The translations under genes and the position numbers were made by a program. This document shows, piece after piece, positions 1-49,305 of a stretch of DNA of 64,000 bases. Source of the DNA: Acidobacteriota bacterium (lineage in GTDB: Bacteria > Acidobacteriota > UBA6911 > RPQK01 > JAJDTT01). A model generated the notes under the pieces. That model saw nothing but the letters and a program-made list of their open reading frames with translations. It had not been told where the DNA came from and did not search any database. Position 1 is the first letter of the stretch; each line of letters opens with the position of its first letter. The stretch spans positions 2,464,001 through 2,528,000 of the forward strand of contig OZ253580.1 of NCBI GenBank assembly GCA_965263035.1, given 5' to 3'.

Positions 1-3000
1 TCTCCTCGGGCGTGAGCTGGGTCTCTCCCTTGGGAGTCACCTTCCCGACCATGATGTCGCCGGGCCGGATCTTGGCTCCGATACGGACGATCCCGCTCTC
101 GTCCAAGTCCGCCAGGATCGACTCGCTCACGTTGGGAATGTCCCGAGTGATGTCCTCAGGACCCAATTTGGTGTCCCGGGACTCGATATCCAGCTCTTCG
201 ATGTGGACGGAGGTGTAGATGTCCTCCTTGACCAGCCTCTCGCTGACCAGAATGGCGTCTTCGAAGTTGTAGCCCCGCCAGGGCATGAACGCCGCCAGGA
301 CGTTTCGTCCCAGCGCCAGCTCCCCCTGGTCGGTGCAGGGTCCGTCCACCAGGATCTGACCCTTCCGGACCCGCTGTCCGATACGAACCAACGGCTTCTG
401 GTTGATGCAGGTGTTCTGGTTGGACCGGGCGAACTTGACCAGCTTGTAGATGTCGACACCAGCTCCCCGGCTCTCATCCACGTCCTGGCTGGTGACCCGC
501 ACGATGATTCGCTCGGCATCGACGCCGTCCACGATTCCGTCGCGCCGGCACAGGATGACGGCCCCCGAATCGCGGGCGGCGATGCGCTCCATACCGGTGC
601 CCACGAGCGGCGCCTCGGCCCGAACCAAGGGGACCGCCTGCCGCTGCATGTTGGCGCCCATCAGGGCCCGGTTGGCATCGTCGTGCTCCAGAAAGGGGAC
701 CAGGCTGGCCGCCACGCTGACCAACTGCTTGGGGCTGACGTCCACGTACTGGACCTCTTCCTTGGGAACGAAAACGAAGTTCCCCTCGTGGCGGGCGCTC
801 ACCCGGTCCCGGATCAGCCGGCCCTGATCGTCCACCTCCACGTTGGCCTGCGCCGTGACGTGCTTGTCGCCTTGCCAGGCGGTGAGGTAGAAGGCGTACG
901 GCTCGTACCGGACCGGCCGTTTCGCGCGGCCGCTCAACACCTTGTTGGTCTGCAGCACGTCCTCGTCCGGGTAGGCTTCGCCGATCTTGAACTCGCTGTC
1001 CCCCGAATCGCTGATCCGGACGTAGTCCACGATCCGGCTGTCCACGACCTTCCGGTAGGGGGACTCGATGAAGCCGAACTGGTCGATACGGGCGTAGCAG
1101 CTCAAGGAGGAGATCAGCCCGATGTTGGGCCCCTCCGGTGTTTCCACCGGACAGATCCGGCCGTAGTGGGACGGGTGGACGTCGCGCACCTCGAACCCCG
1201 CCCGCTCACGGCTGAGGCCGCCGGGGCCGAGGGCGGAGAGCCGCCGCTTGTGCGTGATCTCCGAAAGGGGGTTGGTCTGATCCATGAACTGGGAGAGCTG
1301 GCTGCTGCCGAAAAACTCCCGGATGGAGGCCGTCACCGGCTTGGCATTGATCAGGTCATGGGGCATGGCCGTGGTCATCTCCTGATGCACGGACATCTTT
1401 TCCTTGATGGCCCGCTCCATGCGCACCAGACCGATGCGGAACTGATTCTCCAGGAGCTCGCCCACGGCTCTGACCCGGCGGTTGCCCAGATGATCGATGT
1501 CGTCGGCAACTCCCAGGTTGTTCAGCAGCCTCATCAGGTAGTCGATGATCTGGCAGAAGTCGCTGGTGGAGAGGGTCCGCTCCTCGAGGGATATGTCCTG
1601 ACCCAGCTTGATGTTCAGCTTGAGGCGTCCCACACGCGAGAAGTCGTACCTTCTGCGATCCTGGAACATCCCCTTGAAGAGGGCCGTCGCCGTGTCCAGA
1701 GTGGGAGGGTCGCCGGGCCGCTGTTTCCGGTAGATCTCGATGAGGGCGTCGTCCCGGGTCTTGACCGCATCCTTCATGAGGGTCCCGGTCAATACCATCC
1801 CCACGTCGTCCGACTCCGGGTAGAAGACCACCAACTCCTCGATGCCCGCCTCGATGGCCCCGTTCACCGTACTCTCGGCGACGAAATTGTTGGATTCCAG
1901 CAGGATCTCACCCGTGCTGAGATCGACGACCTCCGCCGCCGCCTGGGCTCCCTTCAGATCGTCGATGCCGATCTCCACCTCATCCACGCCGGCCCGGAGC
2001 ATTCGCGTATAACTGGTCTGGCTGATCTTGCGTCCTGCCCTGACCAGATTGCGGTCCGAATTGGACGGGTCCGGGACGCCGTGGTTGGACCGGGTCCCGA
2101 TCAGCTTCTCATCCAGCTTCCGGAACAACCTGCCGTCCGATCCGACCCGGATCGTGGAGACGTGGTAGAAGGTTCGCAGGATGTCCTCGTCGGTCTCCAC
2201 GCCCAGGGCCCGCAAAAAAACGGTAGCCGGAAACTTCCGCTTCCGGTCGATCCTGACGTGGAGCTGGTTCTTGCCGTCGATCTCGAACTCCACCCAGGAG
2301 CCGCGGTAGGGGATGATCTTGGCCAGACAATTTTTCTTGGCGGGATTGTTTTCGAAGAAGACCCCGGGAGAGCGGTGCAGCTGGCTGACGATGACCCGCT
2401 CGGTCCCGTTGATGATGAAGAGCCCGTTCTCGGTCATCAGGGGGATGTCCCCGAAAAAGACCTCCTGCTCCTTGATGTCCCGAATCGTCCGGTCGTCGGT
2501 ATTCGGGTCCTTGTCCCAGACCACCAGCCGGATGGTGACGCGGAGCGGAACTGAATAGGTCATCCCCCGCTCCTTGCACTCGTCCAGGTTGTACTTGATG
2601 TTGAGCTGAACCGGATCGCCGCAGTCCTCGCAACGCTCCACCTCGTTGGGATTTCTGACGCCGCAACTGCGGCAGGTGATGTCGTCGACGCTGTACGGGT
2701 TCACCACCAGGGTCTCGCCGCAGCCGACGCAGGAACTCCGCAGATGCTTGATCCCGCTGAGCCGCCCACACTTGCACTCCCAGTTCCCGATGGAGTAGTC
2801 CACGAAGTCAAGCGAGGAAATGCCTCTGAAGTCGGCGATGGGAAATACCGAGCTGAAAACCGCCTGAAGGCCTATGTCCTCCCGCTCCGAGGGAAGCAGA
2901 TCCATCTGGAGAAATCGCTGATACGACTGCTTCTGGACCTCGAGCAGGTTGGGAATCGGGAAAACGGTCCTGATCTTGGAAAAATCGACACGATCTCCAT

Positions 3001-3025
3001 TGACACTCTCAACGAGTTCAGACAT
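1..3025 (-). CDS. rpoB: RNA polymerase beta subunit, 5' part (runs off the window start)
   Basis: Manual translation from ATG 3025 (GGGAG RBS) gives [35 protein letters not shown], then [30 protein letters not shown] and [11 protein letters not shown]; follows rplL. Absent from the ORF track because its stop lies outside the window. Confidence 0.98.
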
Positions 3026-3227
3026 GCGCATAAACTCCCAGGTTGGTCCGACCGCGCCCAGTCAACGGGAAACTTCTCCCAATACCCAGTAGGCGCTACG
3101 AAAAATTCCGGGCAATGGAACATGCTCGCCCTGCCGGCGAGAGAGACGAGGGAATCGGGGCGCTTTTCCGGTCTCGGGGGAGACCCTTGACACGAGCCGT
3201 CGGTCCGCCCCCCCGACAGGCCCGCTT

Positions 3228-6496: not shown

Positions 6497-6574
6497 TGGC
6501 AGGCCAGGAGGGAATCGAACCCCCAACATCCGGTTTTGGAGACCGGCGCTCTACCAACTTTGAGCTACTGGCCT
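6497..6574 (-). tRNA. tRNA-Trp(CCA)
   Basis: AGGCCAG/CTGGCCT acceptor stem, anticodon CCA, GTTCGA T-loop, encoded CCA end. Confidence 0.96.
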
Positions 6575-6586
6575 ATTGAATATCAT

Positions 6587-6736
6587 TTATCGCGCCTCGC
6601 GGTGTGCCACGTGGCGACGACACCAACTGCAATATTTTCTCAGCTCGAGCCGCACGCGCTGAGTCTTCCTGTTCTTGGTCGTACTATAGTTCTTCCTGTG
6701 GCAAGCGGTGCATCGGAGGGTGATGATATCGCGCAT
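6587..6736 (-). CDS. rpmG: 50S ribosomal protein L33 (Zn-binding C+ form)
   Basis: Manual translation MRDIITLRCTACHRKNYSTTKNRKTQRVRLELRKYCSWCRRHVAHREAR; 49 aa, below the ORF-track cutoff. Confidence 0.96.
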   Translation of the reverse strand: MRDIITLRCTACHRKNYSTTKNRKTQRVRLELRKYCSWCRRHVAHREAR

Positions 6737-6740
6737 CGGC

Positions 6741-7928
<1,188 letters not shown>

Positions 7929-7967
7929 GATGGAACTCCTGAATCAGCCTTGCCTGGTCAGTTGGAA

Positions 7968-8039
<72 letters not shown>

Positions 8040-8079
8040 ACATACCCGTCTCCCCGGTTTCTGTCCACGTGGCCACTGT

Positions 8080-8155
8080 TGGAGCGGGAGACGGGACTCG
8101 AACCCGCGACCGATAGCTTGGAAGGCTATTACTCTACCAACTGAGTTACTCCCGC
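8080..8155 (-). tRNA. tRNA-Gly(TCC)
   Basis: GCGGGAG acceptor stem, anticodon loop CTTCCAA, encoded CCA. Confidence 0.96.
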
Positions 8156-8218
8156 CCTCGACCGTATGCGAAAAATCGAGTCCGTTCTCTCTAGATCCCG
8201 GAAGGGCGGCTTCTGGTC

Positions 8219-8303
8219 TGGAGGGGGCAGGATTCGAACCTGCGTAGCCCCGAAGGGCGACGGGTTTACAGCCCGTTGCCTTTATCCACTCGACCACCCC
8301 TCC
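8219..8303 (-). tRNA. tRNA-Tyr(GTA)
   Basis: GGAGGGG/CCCCTCC acceptor stem, loop CTGTAAA, long variable arm. Confidence 0.95.
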
Positions 8304-8512
8304 TCATTGCATTCGGGGAATTCCTGATCCCCATCCGCCCCGTGGTGTCGCTCCTGCCAGTGCACCCCACCTTCCTGCAAAGCAGTCCCATTGCCAGGGA
8401 GGATACGGGAAGTGCCAAATTATACGCACTTCGGGGACCATATTCAAACTGAAAAATGGACGAACTGAGGCCGCCATTCCCGGCACCCGAGGGTAACCTT
8501 GCTGCGAGGGCG

Positions 8513-8584
8513 AGCTGGCGAAGGGAATCGAACCCCCAACCTACTGATTACAAATCAGTTGCTCTACCCTTGAGCTACGCCAGC
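8513..8584 (-). tRNA. tRNA-Thr(TGT)
   Basis: GCTGGCG/CGCCAGC acceptor stem, loop TTTGTAA. Confidence 0.95.
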
Positions 8585-18158: not shown

Positions 18159-18801
18159 GTCGCGGTAGGGACACCGGTTGCCCAGCGCCCCCCGCGCAGA
18201 TCCGTGCGTGCCCGTTAAGGCACACGGCTCCTACCTCAGGTAGTGACGGCAGGTCGCGACGCCCGCCGTATCCGACCCCCGCCTGTGTCACGGTCATCCG
18301 GCTCTGGGTCCGGTCCGTACTTTGGTGAGCCGAATTCCCCTTGGCTCCATCCCTTCGCTCCACGGACTCCGCAGAAAGTTCCCCCTCTTTGTTCGCCCGC
18401 TTCATCACTACTATGGATGTATCCGATTGCTTGCTCTTTCCCCTCATGGGTTACGGCTTTCTCCTTTCCCACGAGGCCCCGGCTCTCGCCGGGGAGAGAC
18501 CAAGCCCTCCCAGGTCCCGACACCAGATGTACGTACGTGCATGGGTTCTTTGACACCGCGGAGCCCGGCCGTCCCTCACCTTGGCGGTCCAGCCGGTGTT
18601 GCCTTCGACCGCGACTACAGCCTCGGCACTTCCGATCAAGGAGCTTTCGATGCTCAATAGCCTGCCCATACGCACCGCTACCGACGCTTCGCCGACGCCC
18701 TCACGGACGCCCACGCACGGCTCGCGGAGAAACGTGGATGGTTAGTCCTTTCGTTTCAGCGGACTTTCACCGCCTATCTTGTGCCAGTTAGCCTGGCGCA
18801 C
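18159..18801 (-). mobile_element. ORF-less group II intron (IIB-like), 643 nt
   Basis: 5' GTGCG at 18801; domain V GAGCCGTGTGCCTTAACGGGCACGCACGGATC; 3' end CCCTACCGCGAC; no RT ORF. Confidence 0.9.
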
Positions 18802-18812
18802 AGTTGCCCCTC

Positions 18813-19487
18813 CTATTCCTTCTCGAAAAGGAGAAACTCCCTTTCTCTCAATCCGGCTCTCCTTGGATTCTCGCGGATATATTCCAGGCACTTCAAAAAG
18901 TGCAGAGGGTGCCGGATCAACCGATCCCAATAGTCTTTCTGCCAGATCTTGGCGTATTTTCCGGTCTTCTGGTTGATCACATGAGCCGTAAATCCCTTCC
19001 AGGATCTGACGATGTCTCTGAGATGATGAGAGCCAAGAGGGCGAAACAGCACATGGACATGGTTGGGCATCACGACGAAGGCGGCCAGTTCGTAACGCCG
19101 GCCGTCGAAATGCCGCAGTGAGTCAGCCACGACTCGGGCCAAGGCCGGATCCTTCAGGAGGCAGAACCCGTTCCCTTGATCCAGCCAGTCCTCGATTCGT
19201 CGAGAGAATTGATTGACGTAGCGTTTCGCCGTCCGCGCATCCCAGGGTCTTGGATGGTGTTTCAACCAGAATCTTCGTTCTTCCCGCCACTGATCCAGTT
19301 TGGCGTGTGGAAGCGAATCTCCCAGCCGCCAAGTCACGAAGACGAAGTGTTCACGCTTGTGCCAATGGGGCAGGCGGTTGTACCAAACGTCAATGGTTCC
19401 AGACTGATCAAAAGAGGAGCCGAAGCTTTCCAGCCACCAATTCTTCGAATCGCATGCCACAAATTTCCTAACGATCCCCTCACCCAA
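18813..19487 (-). CDS. REP-associated tyrosine transposase (RAYT, HUH Y1 family)
   Basis: LPHW, FVTWRLGDSLP, VVMPNHVH (HUH), WQKDYWDRLIR, YIRENP; REPs on both sides; start uncertain. Confidence 0.88.
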   Translation of the reverse strand: MGEGIVRKFVACDSKNWWLESFGSSFDQSGTIDVWYNRLPHWHKREHFVFVTWRLGDSLPHAKLDQWREERRFWLKHHPRPWDARTAKRYVNQFSRRIEDWLDQGNGFCLLKDPALARVVADSLRHFDGRRYELAAFVVMPNHVHVLFRPLGSHHLRDIVRSWKGFTAHVINQKTGKYAKIWQKDYWDRLIRHPLHFLKCLEYIRENPRRAGLREREFLLFEKE

Positions 19488-24110: not shown

Positions 24111-24373
24111 CCGCCGGACTCCCCGGAGGGGCGGTTTCCAACCGCCCATTCTTCCGTTCCTCCGGGGAATGGGGGACAAGACTGTCCCCTCCTATGCCCC
24201 TTCCTGTGAAGATTTCCGATGACCGATCGCACTTTTTCCGCAGTCGTCATAGTAGGTAACGAGCGTTGACAATCGATGACGGGCAACGGAAGAATGCTTC
24301 CTATGGCACGAAACCCCTTGATGGCAAGATGTAGGCGAATCCCGTCTCTCGCCATTAGGTGGAGACCAAGACC

Positions 24374-24703
24374 GTGAATGTTGATCTGATCAGGGTCTTG
24401 GTGGCAGTGGCGGCAGTGGGCGTCGGTCTTGGCGGACTGACGTTGGCCGGCGTGCGAGGGCTGGGTCGCGAAATGCGGGGCCTGCGGCAGGAGACGCGGG
24501 ACGAAATCCAAGGCTTGCGGCAGGAGATGCGGAAGGAAATCCAAGGCCTGCGGCGGGAGACGCGGCACGATATACGGGACATGCGCGGCCACATGGGACG
24601 AATCGATTCCCATATCGGCGAACTCCGGGAACGCATGGGGCACGTGGAAGGACTGTTGAAGGGGTTGCGCGACGCTTTCGTCCAGGGGATCACCCCCAGC
24701 TAG
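24374..24703 (+). CDS. Small single-TM coiled-coil protein (33-bp repeats)
   Basis: MNVDLIRVLVAVAAVGVGLGGL, repeated IQGLRQE, HMGRIDSHIGELRERMGHVEGLLKGLR; paralog of 30323-30577. Confidence 0.8.
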   Translation: MNVDLIRVLVAVAAVGVGLGGLTLAGVRGLGREMRGLRQETRDEIQGLRQEMRKEIQGLRRETRHDIRDMRGHMGRIDSHIGELRERMGHVEGLLKGLRDAFVQGITPS

Positions 24704-24807
24704 GAGCCTGCGCCGCAGAAATTGATCTACTGCGAAAGCGGTAGAATCGGTCCATATTTCCTCGATTCCCCACTTTCTCGCTACGATCATTTCTACCGCG
24801 CAGACTC
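24704..24807. mobile_element. MITE copy 1 (55-bp internal deletion)
   Basis: Imperfect TIRs GAGCCTGCGCCGCAGAAATTGATC / GATCATTTCTACCGCGCAGACTC. Confidence 0.8.
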
Positions 24808-24949
24808 CCAGCTCGTAGTGGCGAGGAGGGGCGATTTCCAGTCGCCCATCCTTCCGCTCCCCCGTGGGCTCCTTCCCCCATGCTCTTCTGCTCTATTGAT
24901 ATTTGGGAGTGCGGCGACAAGAAAGCCGCCGTTCCCATCGGCGGCAAGA

Positions 24950-25581
24950 ATCGGGTCGAGTACAGGGGATTGCGCCCCCGCACCCTCCCACACCACCGGA
25001 CGTACCGTTTTCAGTATCCGGCGGTTGGAGTCACCCGAGGCTCTTTCGAGCCTCGTACAGGGCCTTTCTTTCCGGTTTCCGCCGCCGCTGAGACTTGATC
25101 TCCGCCCTTCCGGCTTGCCGGCCTCCACCCGTGGGCCTTCCATGCCGGGTCCGAGGAGGGTTCCCCTCGCCCCGCTGTCGGAGGTGGTTGCGATCCCGCT
25201 GACGAGTCCACCATAGGGCCAGTCCGACTCCTTCGGTCCTTCGCTCCACCGGCATTACCCGGCTTCTTCGCTACTACGACCTCTGCTGACTTCTCAAGGG
25301 CTCTCACCCTTGAGATCTCCCCGAGTAAGGTGCTGCATCTTTCCCCCCGGGCCGCCCGGCTCTACCTGATGCGTCTGGATGGGGTTCGGGTTTCGCTGTT
25401 GCTCGCCAGCTCACCGCCCGCACCCGGCCTCACTGCCGGTTCGTGTTCCTGCGATCGTGGGTTTGCCTTCCGCTTCCTTCAGCTTCGCCTCGCGGCTTCG
25501 CCTTGCGGTTCGGCTAGGGTTGATCCCATCACCTCCCTTGGGATCTTTCATCCCTTAGATACAGCCCATGTCCGGGCGTAC
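24950..25581 (-). mobile_element. ORF-less group IIC intron, 632 nt
   Basis: 5' GTACGCCCGGACATGGG; short domain V AACCGCCGGATACTGAAAACGGTACGTCCGGTGGT; 3' end CTCGACCCGAT; no RT ORF. Confidence 0.88.
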
Positions 25582-25783
25582 GAGCGGCGACTTTCTTATC
25601 GTCGATTAGGTGGAGGTGGAGGTGGAGTCCCACCTCTACACTTTCCGGCTAGAAGAGGAGGCGGCAAGAAAACCGCCTCTCCCAGCCGGCGACAAGAAAG
25701 TCGCCGCTCCCAGCCGGCGGCAAGAAAGCGGCTGCTCCTGTCGTGGAATCGGTCTTGGGGCCGTGATATCGTGCTGGCCAGTC

Positions 25784-27835
25784 ATGGGAGCCGGGAGGGG
25801 AAGTTCGGACGATTCTTCCGGCCTCCGGCGACACCGCGACCTCTACGATCACGACTATTTCCACGGCAAGACCAGCGGGTATCCTTCCGAGGGTTACGCT
25901 CGCGCGCATCCGGAATGGGGCCCCTGGTTGGAGCTGCTGGATGCGCTTCAGCCCAAGGGCCTGCTGCTGGAGTTGGGTTGCGCTTACGGGTATCTGACGG
26001 AGGCGGTCCGAGGCTCCGGCCGGCGGGCGGTGGGCCTGGACCTGAGCGACTACGCCCTCTCCCAGCACGTTCCGGCGCGCCCCTTCCTGGTGCAGGGTGA
26101 CGCCCAGGAACTGCCCTTCGCCAGCGGCTGCGCGCACGTCGTCACCCTGTTCGACCTGCTGGAGCACCTTCCGGACCCGCGCGCCTGCCTCCGGGAGGCG
26201 GTCCGGATCTTGCACCCGGACGGACTCATGGCAGGCGCCACTCCGGACCCTCTCCATTTCCGGCGGCCGGAGCCGACCCACTGCTTCGAGCGCCCCCCCT
26301 CCTTCTGGATCTCGGCCCTGGAGGAGCTGGACCTGGCCGTGACCTACCGCTTCTCCGTGACCCCCTACAACTTCCAGTTCCTGGCGGCGTTCAAGGGGTC
26401 CCCCACGGCGGCGCGGGCGGCGGCGTGGCGCCACGACTACTACGGCCCGGAACGGGATTTCGTCTCCGTCGACGGTCCCCTGGAGGCCCTGCCCCGCTGG
26501 GGCTGGTCGGCATTGGAGTCCGGCTCCCGGGGAATGCAGGGAAACTCCTCGGCCCTCTACCTCCTGAACCGGCTGGCCGGACCGGTCCGTTTCACGACCC
26601 GCTTCTCCGTCTCCTCCTCACCCGACTTCACCACCCTGCGGGTCCGGGCCGGCAGCTCCACGTTGGCCGAGATCCACCTCGACTCGGAGCGAAAGACCAC
26701 CCAGGTGGTGCTCCCCCCCGTCAGCGTGGCCAGCGGCGGGCACCATCTGATCTTCGAACCCTCCCCACTGGGTCCGCGGCTCCACATCCACGACGTGGAG
26801 ATCGACGCCGAGCCCTGTTCCCAGGAGGACCTGGTCCTGGGCCTTCCCTTCGACCTCTACCAGCGCTACCGCCTCGCGGCGCAGGTGGGTTCCGGACTGA
26901 CCCGGGGTCCCATCCTGGACGTGGGCGGCCTGCTGGGGGACCAGGACGGACACCTGGCCACCACGGCGGACTTTTTCTCCGAACTGGAAATGGACGCGCC
27001 CGTACAGGTCCGAACCACCGACCTGAGGCATTGCGACCATCCGGACCACGCTCCGGCCCCGGCCTGGGAGCAGCCCTTCGAAGACGCCTCCTTCGACCTG
27101 GTGCTGGCTCTGGACGTGCTGGAGCATCTGGAACCGGAGCGGCGGCCCGACCTGCTCTCGGAACTGGACCGAGTCGCCCGTTCCTTCATCCTGATCGGCG
27201 CCCCCTTCTCCACCCCGGCCGTGGAGCGGACCGAGGAGGAGCTGGCTCAGGGACTGCTGGACACCCGCCGTTTCCTGGAGGAGCACCGGACCCTGGGGCT
27301 GCCGTCTCTCGACCTGGTGGAGAGTCACTTCGGGGACCGGCCCGAGTATGAGGTCCACCGGTTCCCCAGCGGCTACCTGCCTCGCTGGCGGGCCATGCAG
27401 GTGCTGACGCAGCACTACTTCCAGTTGAACGACACCACCTCCATGACCGCCCTGAACCGTCTCTACAACCAGACCTGTTATGTTCCGGACTTGGCCGAAC
27501 CGTCCTACCGGACCCTTTTCCTGATCTCCAAGACACCCCTCTCTGAAGGCCAACGAAAGGCGTTGGCGGCGCTGCTCCCGGGGCCGGACTCGGATCCCGA
27601 GTCCCCCTGCGGCCTCTCGGAGATTGCCCGGCACTCCCAGTTCCCGAGTCTGCACCAGCGGCTCAGGGAGCTGCTGCAGGAACGGGACGAGGCTTGGCTG
27701 AACACGCGATTCCTCATCAACGAGCGGCAGAAGCTGATCCGGCTGCTGCGCCGCGAGATCCGGCGCCTGCGCACCGAGGTCCCCCTCTGGAAACTGGCGG
27801 TTCTCCGCCTCCGGGACAAACTGAGACGCCGCTGA
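25784..27835 (+). CDS. Two-domain SAM methyltransferase with C-terminal coiled coil
   Basis: LELGCAYG with FDLLEHL, and LDVGG with LDVLEHL; directly after wzt. Confidence 0.85.
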   Translation: MGAGRGSSDDSSGLRRHRDLYDHDYFHGKTSGYPSEGYARAHPEWGPWLELLDALQPKGLLLELGCAYGYLTEAVRGSGRRAVGLDLSDYALSQHVPARPFLVQGDAQELPFASGCAHVVTLFDLLEHLPDPRACLREAVRILHPDGLMAGATPDPLHFRRPEPTHCFERPPSFWISALEELDLAVTYRFSVTPYNFQFLAAFKGSPTAARAAAWRHDYYGPERDFVSVDGPLEALPRWGWSALESGSRGMQGNSSALYLLNRLAGPVRFTTRFSVSSSPDFTTLRVRAGSSTLAEIHLDSERKTTQVVLPPVSVASGGHHLIFEPSPLGPRLHIHDVEIDAEPCSQEDLVLGLPFDLYQRYRLAAQVGSGLTRGPILDVGGLLGDQDGHLATTADFFSELEMDAPVQVRTTDLRHCDHPDHAPAPAWEQPFEDASFDLVLALDVLEHLEPERRPDLLSELDRVARSFILIGAPFSTPAVERTEEELAQGLLDTRRFLEEHRTLGLPSLDLVESHFGDRPEYEVHRFPSGYLPRWRAMQVLTQHYFQLNDTTSMTALNRLYNQTCYVPDLAEPSYRTLFLISKTPLSEGQRKALAALLPGPDSDPESPCGLSEIARHSQFPSLHQRLRELLQERDEAWLNTRFLINERQKLIRLLRREIRRLRTEVPLWKLAVLRLRDKLRRR

Positions 27836-48984: not shown

Positions 48985-49305
48985 ACTGTCTCTCTCTTGT
49001 CCACATGCCACCGCCACTAACCCGGCGGAACCGGCCGGTGCTCACGTTGCTCGCGTCCCGACCGCTGGCAGCCATCGTGCGTTTCTCAGGCGGGTCGGCT
49101 TCCGCATTACCCGTTTCGAGGCCTGATCAGCATTCACATGTTGCAGCATGCGGACTCGCTGAGTCGCCCAAGGCGACCCTTTGACATCGGAGTGCTTCAG
49201 TCCATATCGTTGCCTCCATGAACCGCTCCGACTGCTACCGGCTGGAGCGACAGTTGCCGGGTGGGATTCGCACCCACTGAGAAACAGCGCCTTTGCACGG
49301 CGCAC
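48985..49305 (-). mobile_element. 5' fragment (domain I) of a third group II intron
   Basis: GTGCGCCGTGCAAAGGCGC..GGGTGCGAATCCC start; TGAGA loop (49084-49088) complementary to the 5' exon TCTCA; no domain V or VI. Confidence 0.7.

Follow-up and report, generated by a model that had tools for sequence, protein, structure and literature searches.

A group IIC intron family that sits behind REP-like hairpins in an Acidobacteriota genome

Bacterial group II introns of class C (IIC) are recognized by a 32-nt domain V with a CGC triad, by the IIC-specific AGGAA motif, by an exon-binding site 1 (EBS1) of 3-4 nt, and by a stem-loop upstream of the intron (Toor et al. 2006, PMC1702495). Here we describe an intron of this class that carries no open reading frame (ORF) and lies at 24950..25581 on the minus strand of a 64,000-nt stretch of an Acidobacteriota bacterium (assembly GCA_965263035.1, contig OZ253580.1, positions 2,464,001 to 2,528,000; hereafter the window), together with its relatives in the same genome, a single contig of 6.198 Mb and 62.1% G+C. 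All 24 copies of the intron sit directly behind a GC-rich hairpin followed by a fixed tetranucleotide, and the hairpins, with one exception, resemble repetitive extragenic palindromes (REPs). An earlier note on the window had proposed, without stating the strand, an ORF-less IIC intron behind a REP hairpin, and a variant of the class adapted to REPs; the first proposal is borne out by the Rfam matches, domain V and AGGAA motif described below, and the second finds support where the family and its clade are concerned.

The targets of IIC introns have been described in several ways. Toor et al. speak of 'terminator motifs … or other inverted repeats' (PMC1702495), Leon (2010) places the introns 'usually after palindromic sequences' (PMC3001079), and Miura (2022) reports class C introns behind predicted terminators both with a U tail ('L-shaped') and without one ('I-shaped') (PMC8919778). 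A paper of November 2025 still places IIC introns downstream of rho-independent terminators (PMC12584367), and reviews credit bacterial group II introns with three kinds of target, namely homing sites, terminators and attC (PMC4424553). Introns of the attC type insert at TTGT/T on the bottom strand of attC, and no IIC intron has ever served as a targetron (PMC7923331). An IIC lineage that homes to REPs is not described in the literature searched, in which several key papers and supplements were beyond reach and may list such sites.

The closest described systems are the terminator-homing IIC introns, such as B.h.I1 of Bacillus halodurans and GsI-IIC of Geobacillus stearothermophilus. They share with the present family the small size of the ribozyme, a domain V of 32 nt, CGC and AGGAA, a pairing of 3-4 bp between EBS1 and intron-binding site 1 (IBS1), the lack of an IBS2, a hairpin just upstream, and a reverse transcriptase (RT)/maturase without endonuclease (En) domain. 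However, their IBS1 is a U run, whereas here it is GCTC (CCTC, CTA or CCA in relatives); their hairpins are gene-specific terminators, whereas ours are REP repeats, behind a co-oriented gene in 11 of 24 copies by crude gene calls; and the intron-encoded proteins (IEPs) form separate clades. The IIC-attC introns, represented by S.ma.I2, resemble our family in that a sub-lineage of class C uses a non-terminator hairpin belonging to another mobile system, without a U tail and frequently antisense to neighbouring genes. They differ in their site (TTGT/T in attC, as against REP+GCTC/C without integron context) and in their protein, the S.ma.I2 IEP being just 40% identical to that of our family, which falls outside the attC clade. 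ORF-less introns more numerous within one genome than the ORF-bearing relatives whose RT they presumably use are also known from Thermosynechococcus elongatus (PMC2882425), but those are IIB/CL introns at sequence-defined sites, whereas ours are IIC introns at structure-defined REP sites. Lastly, REPs serve as safe landing sites for REP-targeting insertion sequences (ISs; PMC1525189), and a group II intron of Pseudomonas putida KT2440 is REP-associated in 2/9 copies (Tobes & Pareja 2006, PMC1525189). Here, in contrast, the association holds for 24/24 copies, with a junction fixed to the nucleotide and a pairing to the REP tail that covariation demonstrates.

The window copy runs on the minus strand from G25581 (5'-GUACG) to U24950 (..CCCGAU-3'), a length of 632 nt without an ORF; its borders were set by alignment with the 23 further copies from the same genome. 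Three Rfam group II pieces lie on that strand in the correct order. The domain I core matches RF02001 (group-II-D1D4-3) at 25332..25499, with 80.6 bits against a gathering score of 32 and E 1.7e-14; domains II-III match RF01998 (group-II-D1D4-1) at 25236..25329, with 45.3 bits against a gathering score of 35; and the third piece, RF00029, covers domains V and VI. Domain V itself, delimited from the sequence, its minimum-free-energy (MFE) fold and the RF00029 match (24993..25024, minus strand), reads CCGCCGGAUACUG-AAAA-CGGUACGUCCGGUGG from 25024 to 24993, that is, 9 bp, an AC bulge, 4 bp and a 4-nt loop. It is thus 32 nt long rather than 34 and has CGC in place of AGC, as in class C, where the distal stem is 2 bp shorter. 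The AGGAA motif of the IIC epsilon-prime region lies at 25474..25478, where it aligns with the conserved CUGAAGGAAGC of RF02001. By comparison with ORF-bearing copies of 1848 nt, a remnant of domain IV without an ORF occupies 25030..25235, and a GAAA-capped hairpin, GAGGCTCGAAAGAGCCTC (25054-25037), closes the deletion scar. Domain VI, placed by sequence and MFE fold at 24953..24989, has its bulged A at 24956, seven nt before the 3' end, which is AU; class C introns have 5' GUGYG and 3' AY ends and a bulged A in this domain.

Upstream of the intron, the 5' exon consists of CGACGATAAGAAAGTCGCCG (25604-25585) followed by CTC (25584-25582), exactly where the earlier note had placed them. The hairpin (25585..25604, minus strand; CGACGAT AAGAAA GTCGCCG) is a degenerate REP: its DNA fold is worth -2.3 kcal/mol, as against -6.3 to -9.9 in the other 23 copies. 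As is typical of class C, it occupies the place that IBS2 holds in IIA and IIB introns. The last four exon bases, GCTC (25582..25585), form IBS1, and the predicted partner is a stem-loop in domain I, GCTG-GCGAGCAA-CAGC (25395..25410), whose loop contains EBS1 = GAGC at 25404-25401. Downstream, the 3' exon (24939..24949, minus strand) begins with T at the IBS3 position and continues as half a REP (TCTTGCCGCCG); reading on from 24949 downwards, a complete REP follows in the opposite orientation. As the note had it, the 3' side is also REP sequence, and joining the two sides does not restore a single REP.

By its RpoB, which is 87-93% identical to that of several chromosomes assembled from metagenomes, the host belongs to an uncultured Acidobacteriota lineage. 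A search of the genome with the intron returns 24 copies, of which 19 are ORF-less, 2 encode an RT/maturase and 3 are broken by insertions. The ORF-less copies are 630-632 nt long and 95-100% identical to the window copy. The two ORF-bearing copies measure 1848 nt and encode the same 409-aa IEP, which has the RVT_1 and GIIM domains, scores 362 bits with TIGR04416 and has no En domain, as expected for class C; relative to them, the ORF-less copies miss about 1.2 kb, from the region of the IEP start to its stop codon. ORF-less forms occur in four species of the genus, and three sister species have deletion junctions unlike those here. Thus, mini-introns arose more than once. Within our genome, 10 of the 19 ORF-less copies differ from their consensus by 0-1 nt, including identical sets of 5 and of 2, and we therefore conclude that the family has undergone a recent burst. 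The window copy belongs to the opposite extreme. It is the most diverged of the 19, with 32 differing positions, among them a private G3A (which turns the 5' end GUGCG, found in the 23 other copies, into GUACG), C9G, and a base inserted at position 6. The copy is probably no longer mobile, to judge from its GUACG 5' end, its eroded hairpin and the T at IBS3, and since it is the most diverged of the ORF-less copies, the adaptation described here is a property of the family rather than demonstrably of the window copy.

As regards the three interrupted copies, two contain a 1783-bp IS with terminal inverted repeats (genome positions 3923464-3925242 and 3067891-3069672), of which the genome has about 11 copies, and the third contains a 4.7-kb insert that includes a repeat of about 2.6 kb, itself present in several genome copies. 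We considered whether these three might be twintrons, that is, nested introns; the nature of the inserts rejects this.

The insertion site is nearly invariant. In 24/24 copies a GC-rich hairpin and GCTC lie directly 5' of the intron, the distance from the end of the hairpin to the junction being 3 nt in all copies but one, where it is 2 nt. No copy (0/24) follows a U/T run, and the alternative that other copies would lie behind ordinary U-tailed terminators, with the REP site of the window as an exception, does not survive the alignment of their 5' exons. The first base of the 3' exon is C in 23/24 copies and T in the window copy. Most of the hairpins read CGGCGAC-AAGAAA-GTCGCCG or CGGCGGC-AAGAAA-GCCGCCG; others read GGGGGAC…GTCCCCG or GGGGGTTG(C/A)AAACCCCCG, and one copy lies behind an unrelated, non-REP hairpin (GGCCATC…GATGGCC). 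Occupied stems vary with compensating changes. Since the hairpin sequences differ between copies, the element common to them is a structure plus GCTC.

How selective is this choice of site? The association exceeds chance: the word GCTC occurs 69,646 times in the genome, and only 262 of these occurrences follow a perfect 7-bp hairpin (Fisher p 1.6e-45). Perfect 7-bp GC hairpins are followed by CTC at 634 places genome-wide and by TTT at 119. Of the 634, 13 are domain VI of the intron itself, which leaves 621 non-intron sites. (Domain VI, e.g. 24953-24989 on the minus strand, is a GC hairpin followed by ACTC and so resembles the target motif save at position -4.) Twenty of the 621 sites are occupied, and all twenty are among the 262 with G at -4, as compared with 0/359 with another base (Fisher p 2e-8). 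This restriction to G at -4 agrees with a pairing in which GCTC and GAGC form 4 bp. The remaining 242 perfect hairpin+GCTC sites are empty, and in 190 of them the next base is C.

The earlier note had singled out GAGC in the GCTG/CAGC loop as complementary to the exon. That pairing extends over 4 bp, within the 3-4 bp usual for EBS1-IBS1 in class C, and the relatives allow an independent check, for which we number the genomes (G) and the loci from other genomes (L). The loop GCGAGCAA goes with GCTC exons in G000 (this genome), G004 (2/2 exons) and G031 (1/1). In the sister species G001, G003 and G008, the loop, read in one copy per genome, is GCGAGGAA, and the exons lie behind REPs ending in CCTC (1/1, 6/6, and 5/5 of those read, respectively). 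Within the genus, therefore, GAGC accompanies GCTC and GAGG accompanies CCTC. In a wider set of 17 rows, at least three contiguous EBS1/IBS1 pairs are present in 15: four Watson-Crick pairs in 10 rows (GAGC/GCTC, UGGC/GCCA, UAGC/GCTA, UAGG/CCTA) and three pairs in 5, with L037 and L050 as partial exceptions. Because the loop covaries with the exon, we take EBS1 = GAGC as confirmed.

We now turn to the position of the family among IIC introns. The best match of its IEP in the PDB is the GsI-IIC RT (E 1.6e-133), followed by further IIC maturases, with LtrA (8.5e-35) and the RT of T. elongatus at a great distance. We collected 80 related loci from other genomes and were able to locate the intron's 5' end in 51 rows. 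In the 16 rows nearest by ribozyme similarity, whose IEPs are 50-72% identical to ours, the exon always ends in C[TC][AC] directly behind a GC hairpin, and the 3' exon begins with C in 13 of the 15 that are readable. More distant relatives have classic hairpin-plus-T-run terminators upstream; at least 4 T occur among the last 8 exon nt in 24 of 45 labelled rows (the exons of 44 relatives and of our own family). In a 76-row IEP tree (IQ-TREE quick search, with another-class IEP of this genome as outgroup, and without 6 of the 80 loci, including L036-L038, L041 and L047, whose matches were short or interrupted), the near relatives form a clade of 15 rows, with a Shimodaira-Hasegawa-like approximate likelihood ratio test (SH-aLRT) support of 100 and a stem length of 0.75. 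The 11 rows of this clade that are labelled with a known exon all have the non-U ending C[TC][AC].

To represent the attC lineage we used S.ma.I2, the founding IIC-attC intron (Serratia marcescens pSCH909, between aadB and the next cassette), together with 14 relatives. In agreement with the literature (PMC7923331), exons of this lineage end in TTGT in L216 and 12/14 relatives, and in CTTG in the other two; all 14 introns begin with GUACG, which is thus a natural 5' end there, as it is in some Alicyclobacillus introns. Another candidate reference, H29, was rejected, since it belongs to an IncC backbone and follows a classic U-tailed terminator, and is not an integron intron; it appears, without a target label, only in a 78-row tree. 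A 55-row tree (LG+G4, quick search) contains 15 attC-lineage rows; rows with undetermined exons outside the clade were dropped from it, as were five non-U rows likewise outside it (L060, L072, L077, L079 and L082), the unlabelled plasmid row L215, and the att rows L259, L292 and L293. It resolves three separate groups, with SH-aLRT 93 for attC, 100 for the REP group (15 rows) and 89 for the U-tailed group (24 rows), and it places the REP clade beside the U-tailed group with support 94. The RT-bearing relatives are hence class C introns in a clade of their own, apart from both the terminator and the attC types.

Are the target hairpins of this clade repeats in other genomes as well? We counted them in the genomes of Methylobacter marinus A45 and of one Bryobacterales metagenome-assembled genome (MAG), in addition to our own. 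When up to 2 mismatches are allowed, the hairpin of the M. marinus intron (…GGTACGCNNNGCGTACCCTA|C) matches at 159 places, as against 0 for a reversed control; many of them form inverted pairs 40-55 nt apart, and on the other strand they read as GTAG plus palindrome (…CCTA|C). The hairpin of the Bryobacterales intron has 32 matches, as against 1 for the control. The sites of the clade are thus multi-copy REPs in three genomes of two phyla, with the junction inside a four-base tag (CTA|C, CTC|C).

In our own genome the core motif of the REP occurs in 98 exact copies, and the hairpin+CTC sites form sub-families of as many as 44 identical copies. Composite units, in which oppositely oriented REPs flank a conserved spacer of roughly 60-70 nt, number 29 when up to 4 mismatches are allowed, and in 8 of these the downstream REP holds a IIC intron. 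High-copy GC palindromes in arrays and inverted pairs are what defines REPs, and these hairpins have that form. Moreover, 413 of the 621 hairpin+CTC sites fall outside crude ORFs; as these ORFs take up 75% of the genome, about 25% of the sites would be expected there, with the reservation that the gene calls are rough. The window also encodes, at 18813..19487 on the minus strand, a 224-aa Y1 (HUH) transposase resembling REP-associated tyrosine transposases (RAYTs), with 36 bits on PF01797, above its cut-off, and 73.9 bits on the RAYT model NF047646; this ORF is a candidate mobilizer of the REPs, which form arrays only on its 3' side, past a second intron described below. Since they come in families of identical copies, form composite units, are enriched outside crude ORFs and share the genome with a RAYT-like ORF, we call the hairpins REP-like, a term chosen in view of their GGAG tag and the borderline RAYT assignment.

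Several such repeats surround the window copy. The neighbouring REP on the other strand (CGGCGACAAGAAAGCCGCCG + TTCC) is at 24912..24935 (plus strand), and an array of three REPs, recognized by sequence and motif census, is at 25660..25739 (plus strand), the middle one of which (25687-25710, ...GTCGCCGCTC|C) is an empty site of the target type. The composite unit, REP (TTTCTT loop) … TGTTGCTATGCGATTCGGTGGCCGGAAAGTGTAGAGTGGGGACTCCGTCCCCCCTGCCCCCC … REP (AAGAAA loop), lies at 25605-25650 on the minus strand; it resembles a REP doublet forming a hairpin (REPIN) or a bacterial interspersed mosaic element (BIME), and is the repeat found at 29 genome places.

A second, unrelated family of ORF-less group II introns also involves REPs. 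Its window copy, at 18160-18799 on the minus strand, matches RF02005 (D1D4-6) with 166.5 bits, has a domain V of AGC type by eye, and begins 22 nt past the stop codon of the RAYT-like ORF; the genome has 6 further full copies and 1 fragment. All 7 full copies lie inside REPs. In six of the seven the 5' exon is GGAG, the 5' arm of the REP and T, and the 3' exon is the remaining loop and the 3' arm, so that removal of the intron rebuilds the REP; the seventh copy lies inside a different REP type. The genome also has a second Y1_Tnp locus.

The orientation of the 24 introns relative to replication is not random. The cumulative GC skew points to an origin at about 2.86 Mb and a terminus at about 5.84 Mb. 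The intron sense strand is the lagging-strand template in 20 of 24 cases, as compared with 119 of 242 empty GCTC sites (p 0.0012). A bias of this kind is anticipated for endonuclease-less introns that reverse-splice into single-stranded DNA at replication forks, such as RmInt1 and IIC introns (PMC4424553), and we infer an insertion route of this kind for the family. With respect to genes, which we called crudely from the G+C content of third codon positions (GC3), 10 of 24 copies are antisense to both neighbours. The window copy is one of these, lying between a small plus-strand ORF at 24359-24703 (GC3 0.77) and a plus-strand methyltransferase gene (Pfam Methyltransf_11).

These observations suggest the following mechanism. 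The intron RNA would be bound by the RT/maturase supplied by the two full-length copies, and the complex would meet a REP folded as a hairpin on the single-stranded DNA of a fork, on the lagging-strand template. The REP hairpin would substitute for IBS2, GCTC behind it would pair with EBS1 (GAGC, 25404-25401), and the next base, C, would act as IBS3; the RNA would then reverse-splice between GCTC and C and be copied into DNA. Our preferred reading of the window is that it holds an old, decaying, non-autonomous IIC copy, from a family that has given up U-tailed terminators as landing sites in favour of REP hairpins. We assign this reading a probability of about 0.82.

A number of points weigh against it, and some of them concern the evidence for activity. 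Identity between the ORF-less RNA and the ORF-bearing copies is no higher than 89-90%, and for that reason service in trans by the IEP is assumed rather than shown; we infer that the family is active in vivo and is mobilized in trans. Logan contigs of four public runs (two recorded as RNA, two of unknown kind), compared with 24700-25850, show neither a joint of spliced exons nor one of an empty site, nor any usable indication of expression, the contigs ending at repeat borders; the few joints found are REP-to-REP with extra letters, and the check thus gave no direct evidence of splicing or mobility. Others concern the window copy and its parts: its GUACG 5' end is off consensus, its hairpin is eroded, and it has T at IBS3; the RF00029 match at 25026-24950 reaches 38.9 bits against a gathering score of 40; and we did not locate EBS3 in the intron. 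The minimum of the GC skew is shallow, which leaves the origin uncertain within about 2.5-3.0 Mb. In the phylogeny, with S.ma.I2 as the sole attC row, an approximately unbiased (AU) test fails to exclude that it shares a clade with the REP group (p 0.51); S.ma.I2 alone formed a long branch (78-row tree), and the two groups separated only once 14 further attC-lineage rows were included. As for the repeats, one end of a REP carries a conserved tag, GTAG (or CGTC) (PMC3733652), and the tag here is GGAG instead (…CTC|C on the hairpin-first strand); the NF047646 score of the RAYT-like ORF falls short of the cut-off of 80; and REPs may double as U-less terminators. Because class C introns are known behind 'I-shaped' terminators (PMC8919778), 'REP-adapted' and 'terminator-adapted' are not cleanly separable.

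This last point leads to the question of whether the family might be homing to terminators like any other IIC intron but with a different IBS1, the REP-like hairpins serving as the U-less 'I-shaped' terminators of a high-GC genome and their identity as REPs being incidental. A hairpin plus 3-4 nt is, after all, already known as an IIC target (PMC1702495), class C introns occur behind L- and I-shaped predicted terminators alike (PMC8919778), and our genome is poor in perfect GC hairpins followed by TTT, as counted above (119 vs 634 with CTC). By the same crude gene calls the downstream gene converges on 18 of 24 copies, and many sites therefore lie at gene 3' ends. However, by these same calls just 11 copies follow a co-oriented gene, and 10, the window copy included, are antisense to both neighbours. 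The hairpins come as near-identical families of tens of copies, in arrays and inverted doublets (the 29 composite units), which resembles REPs and REPINs more than gene-specific terminators, and a RAYT-like gene is present. The lineage moreover forms a separate clade on a long stem branch, and in a gammaproteobacterium a member of this clade targets a REP tagged with GTAG. We thus regard ordinary terminator homing as unlikely.

The constancy of the 5' flank could in principle also arise without any targeting of REPs. If introns inserted widely at GCTC|C and were retained only in harmless REP arrays, survivorship would produce the same association, and REP arrays are plausibly neutral, with 413 of 621 hairpin sites outside crude ORFs. 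Selection on location would explain neither the fixed distance between hairpin and junction in 24/24 copies (3 nt; 2 nt in one) nor the replication strand bias (20/24); nor does it sit well with the rarity of hairpins in front of GCTC (262 of 69,646 words) or with the use of a non-REP hairpin in an apparently coding stretch. This explanation strikes us as very improbable. We give still less credence to the possibility that the REP is cargo, the mobile unit being hairpin plus intron, or composite repeat plus intron, with a 5' flank conserved by co-mobilization. A longer upstream unit (…GTGTAGAGTGGGGACTCCGTCCCC…) is indeed conserved in 12 of 24 copies. But 242 perfect hairpin+GCTC sites are empty, 21 of the 29 composite units have no intron within 75 nt (up to 4 mismatches), occupied hairpins vary in stem and loop (one is not a REP at all), the IIC consensus GUGCG begins directly behind GCTC, and EBS1 covaries with the exon, as it would with a target. 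The empty sites, the varied hairpins and the covariation lead us to reject REP as cargo.

Returning to the preferred reading of a family that homes to REP hairpins, we may ask how far it generalizes. A broader proposal, which we call 'IIC-REP' and toward which we lean, would make REPs and REPINs a third dedicated target of class C introns besides terminators and attC. The lineage would be monophyletic, present in Acidobacteriota and Gammaproteobacteria at the least, and would have relatives in Verrucomicrobiota. Its EBS1 and EBS3 would read a hairpin plus the complement of the REP tag (CTA|C for GTAG, CTC|C for GGAG), splitting the tag. It would move between REP sub-families by single EBS1 substitutions, such as GAGC to GAGG in the sister species; it would shed ORF-less mini-introns repeatedly; and its members would be hyperparasites of another population of selfish DNA, with the abundance of REPs setting their carrying capacity.

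If REP homing is a property of the lineage, it would add a fourth target specificity to the three given in reviews (PMC4424553), and it would help to explain how IIC introns proliferate in high-GC genomes that are poor in U-tailed terminators. The sister species would then offer a natural series of one-base retargeting events in EBS1/IBS1, which could guide the engineering of IIC introns, and the burst of 10 near-identical ORF-less copies provides a clean example of a non-autonomous IIC 'mini-intron'. Two selfish systems, intron and REP, are linked here; since the intron cuts into the REP tag, intron load may affect the mobility of REPs and REPINs.

Some further features of the window and genome deserve mention. 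A repeat of about 112 nt at 24700-24816 (plus strand), bounded by imperfect terminal inverted repeats (GGAGCCTGCGC…/…GCGCAGACTCC), has the look of a miniature inverted-repeat transposable element; it has 339 BLAST matches in the genome, mostly to a 69-nt form and 8 of them full-length, and its summed contig depth is far above that of its surroundings in all four public runs (hundreds in one, more than 10,000 in three). A third group II intron piece, at 49136-49279 on the minus strand, matches RF02003 (D1D4-4) with 83.8 bits, and the genome also has three copies of an IEP of another class, 34% identical to the class C IEP. A cluster of five tRNA genes lies at 6500-8584 on the minus strand, and rpoB (2-3031, minus strand) runs off the start of the window.

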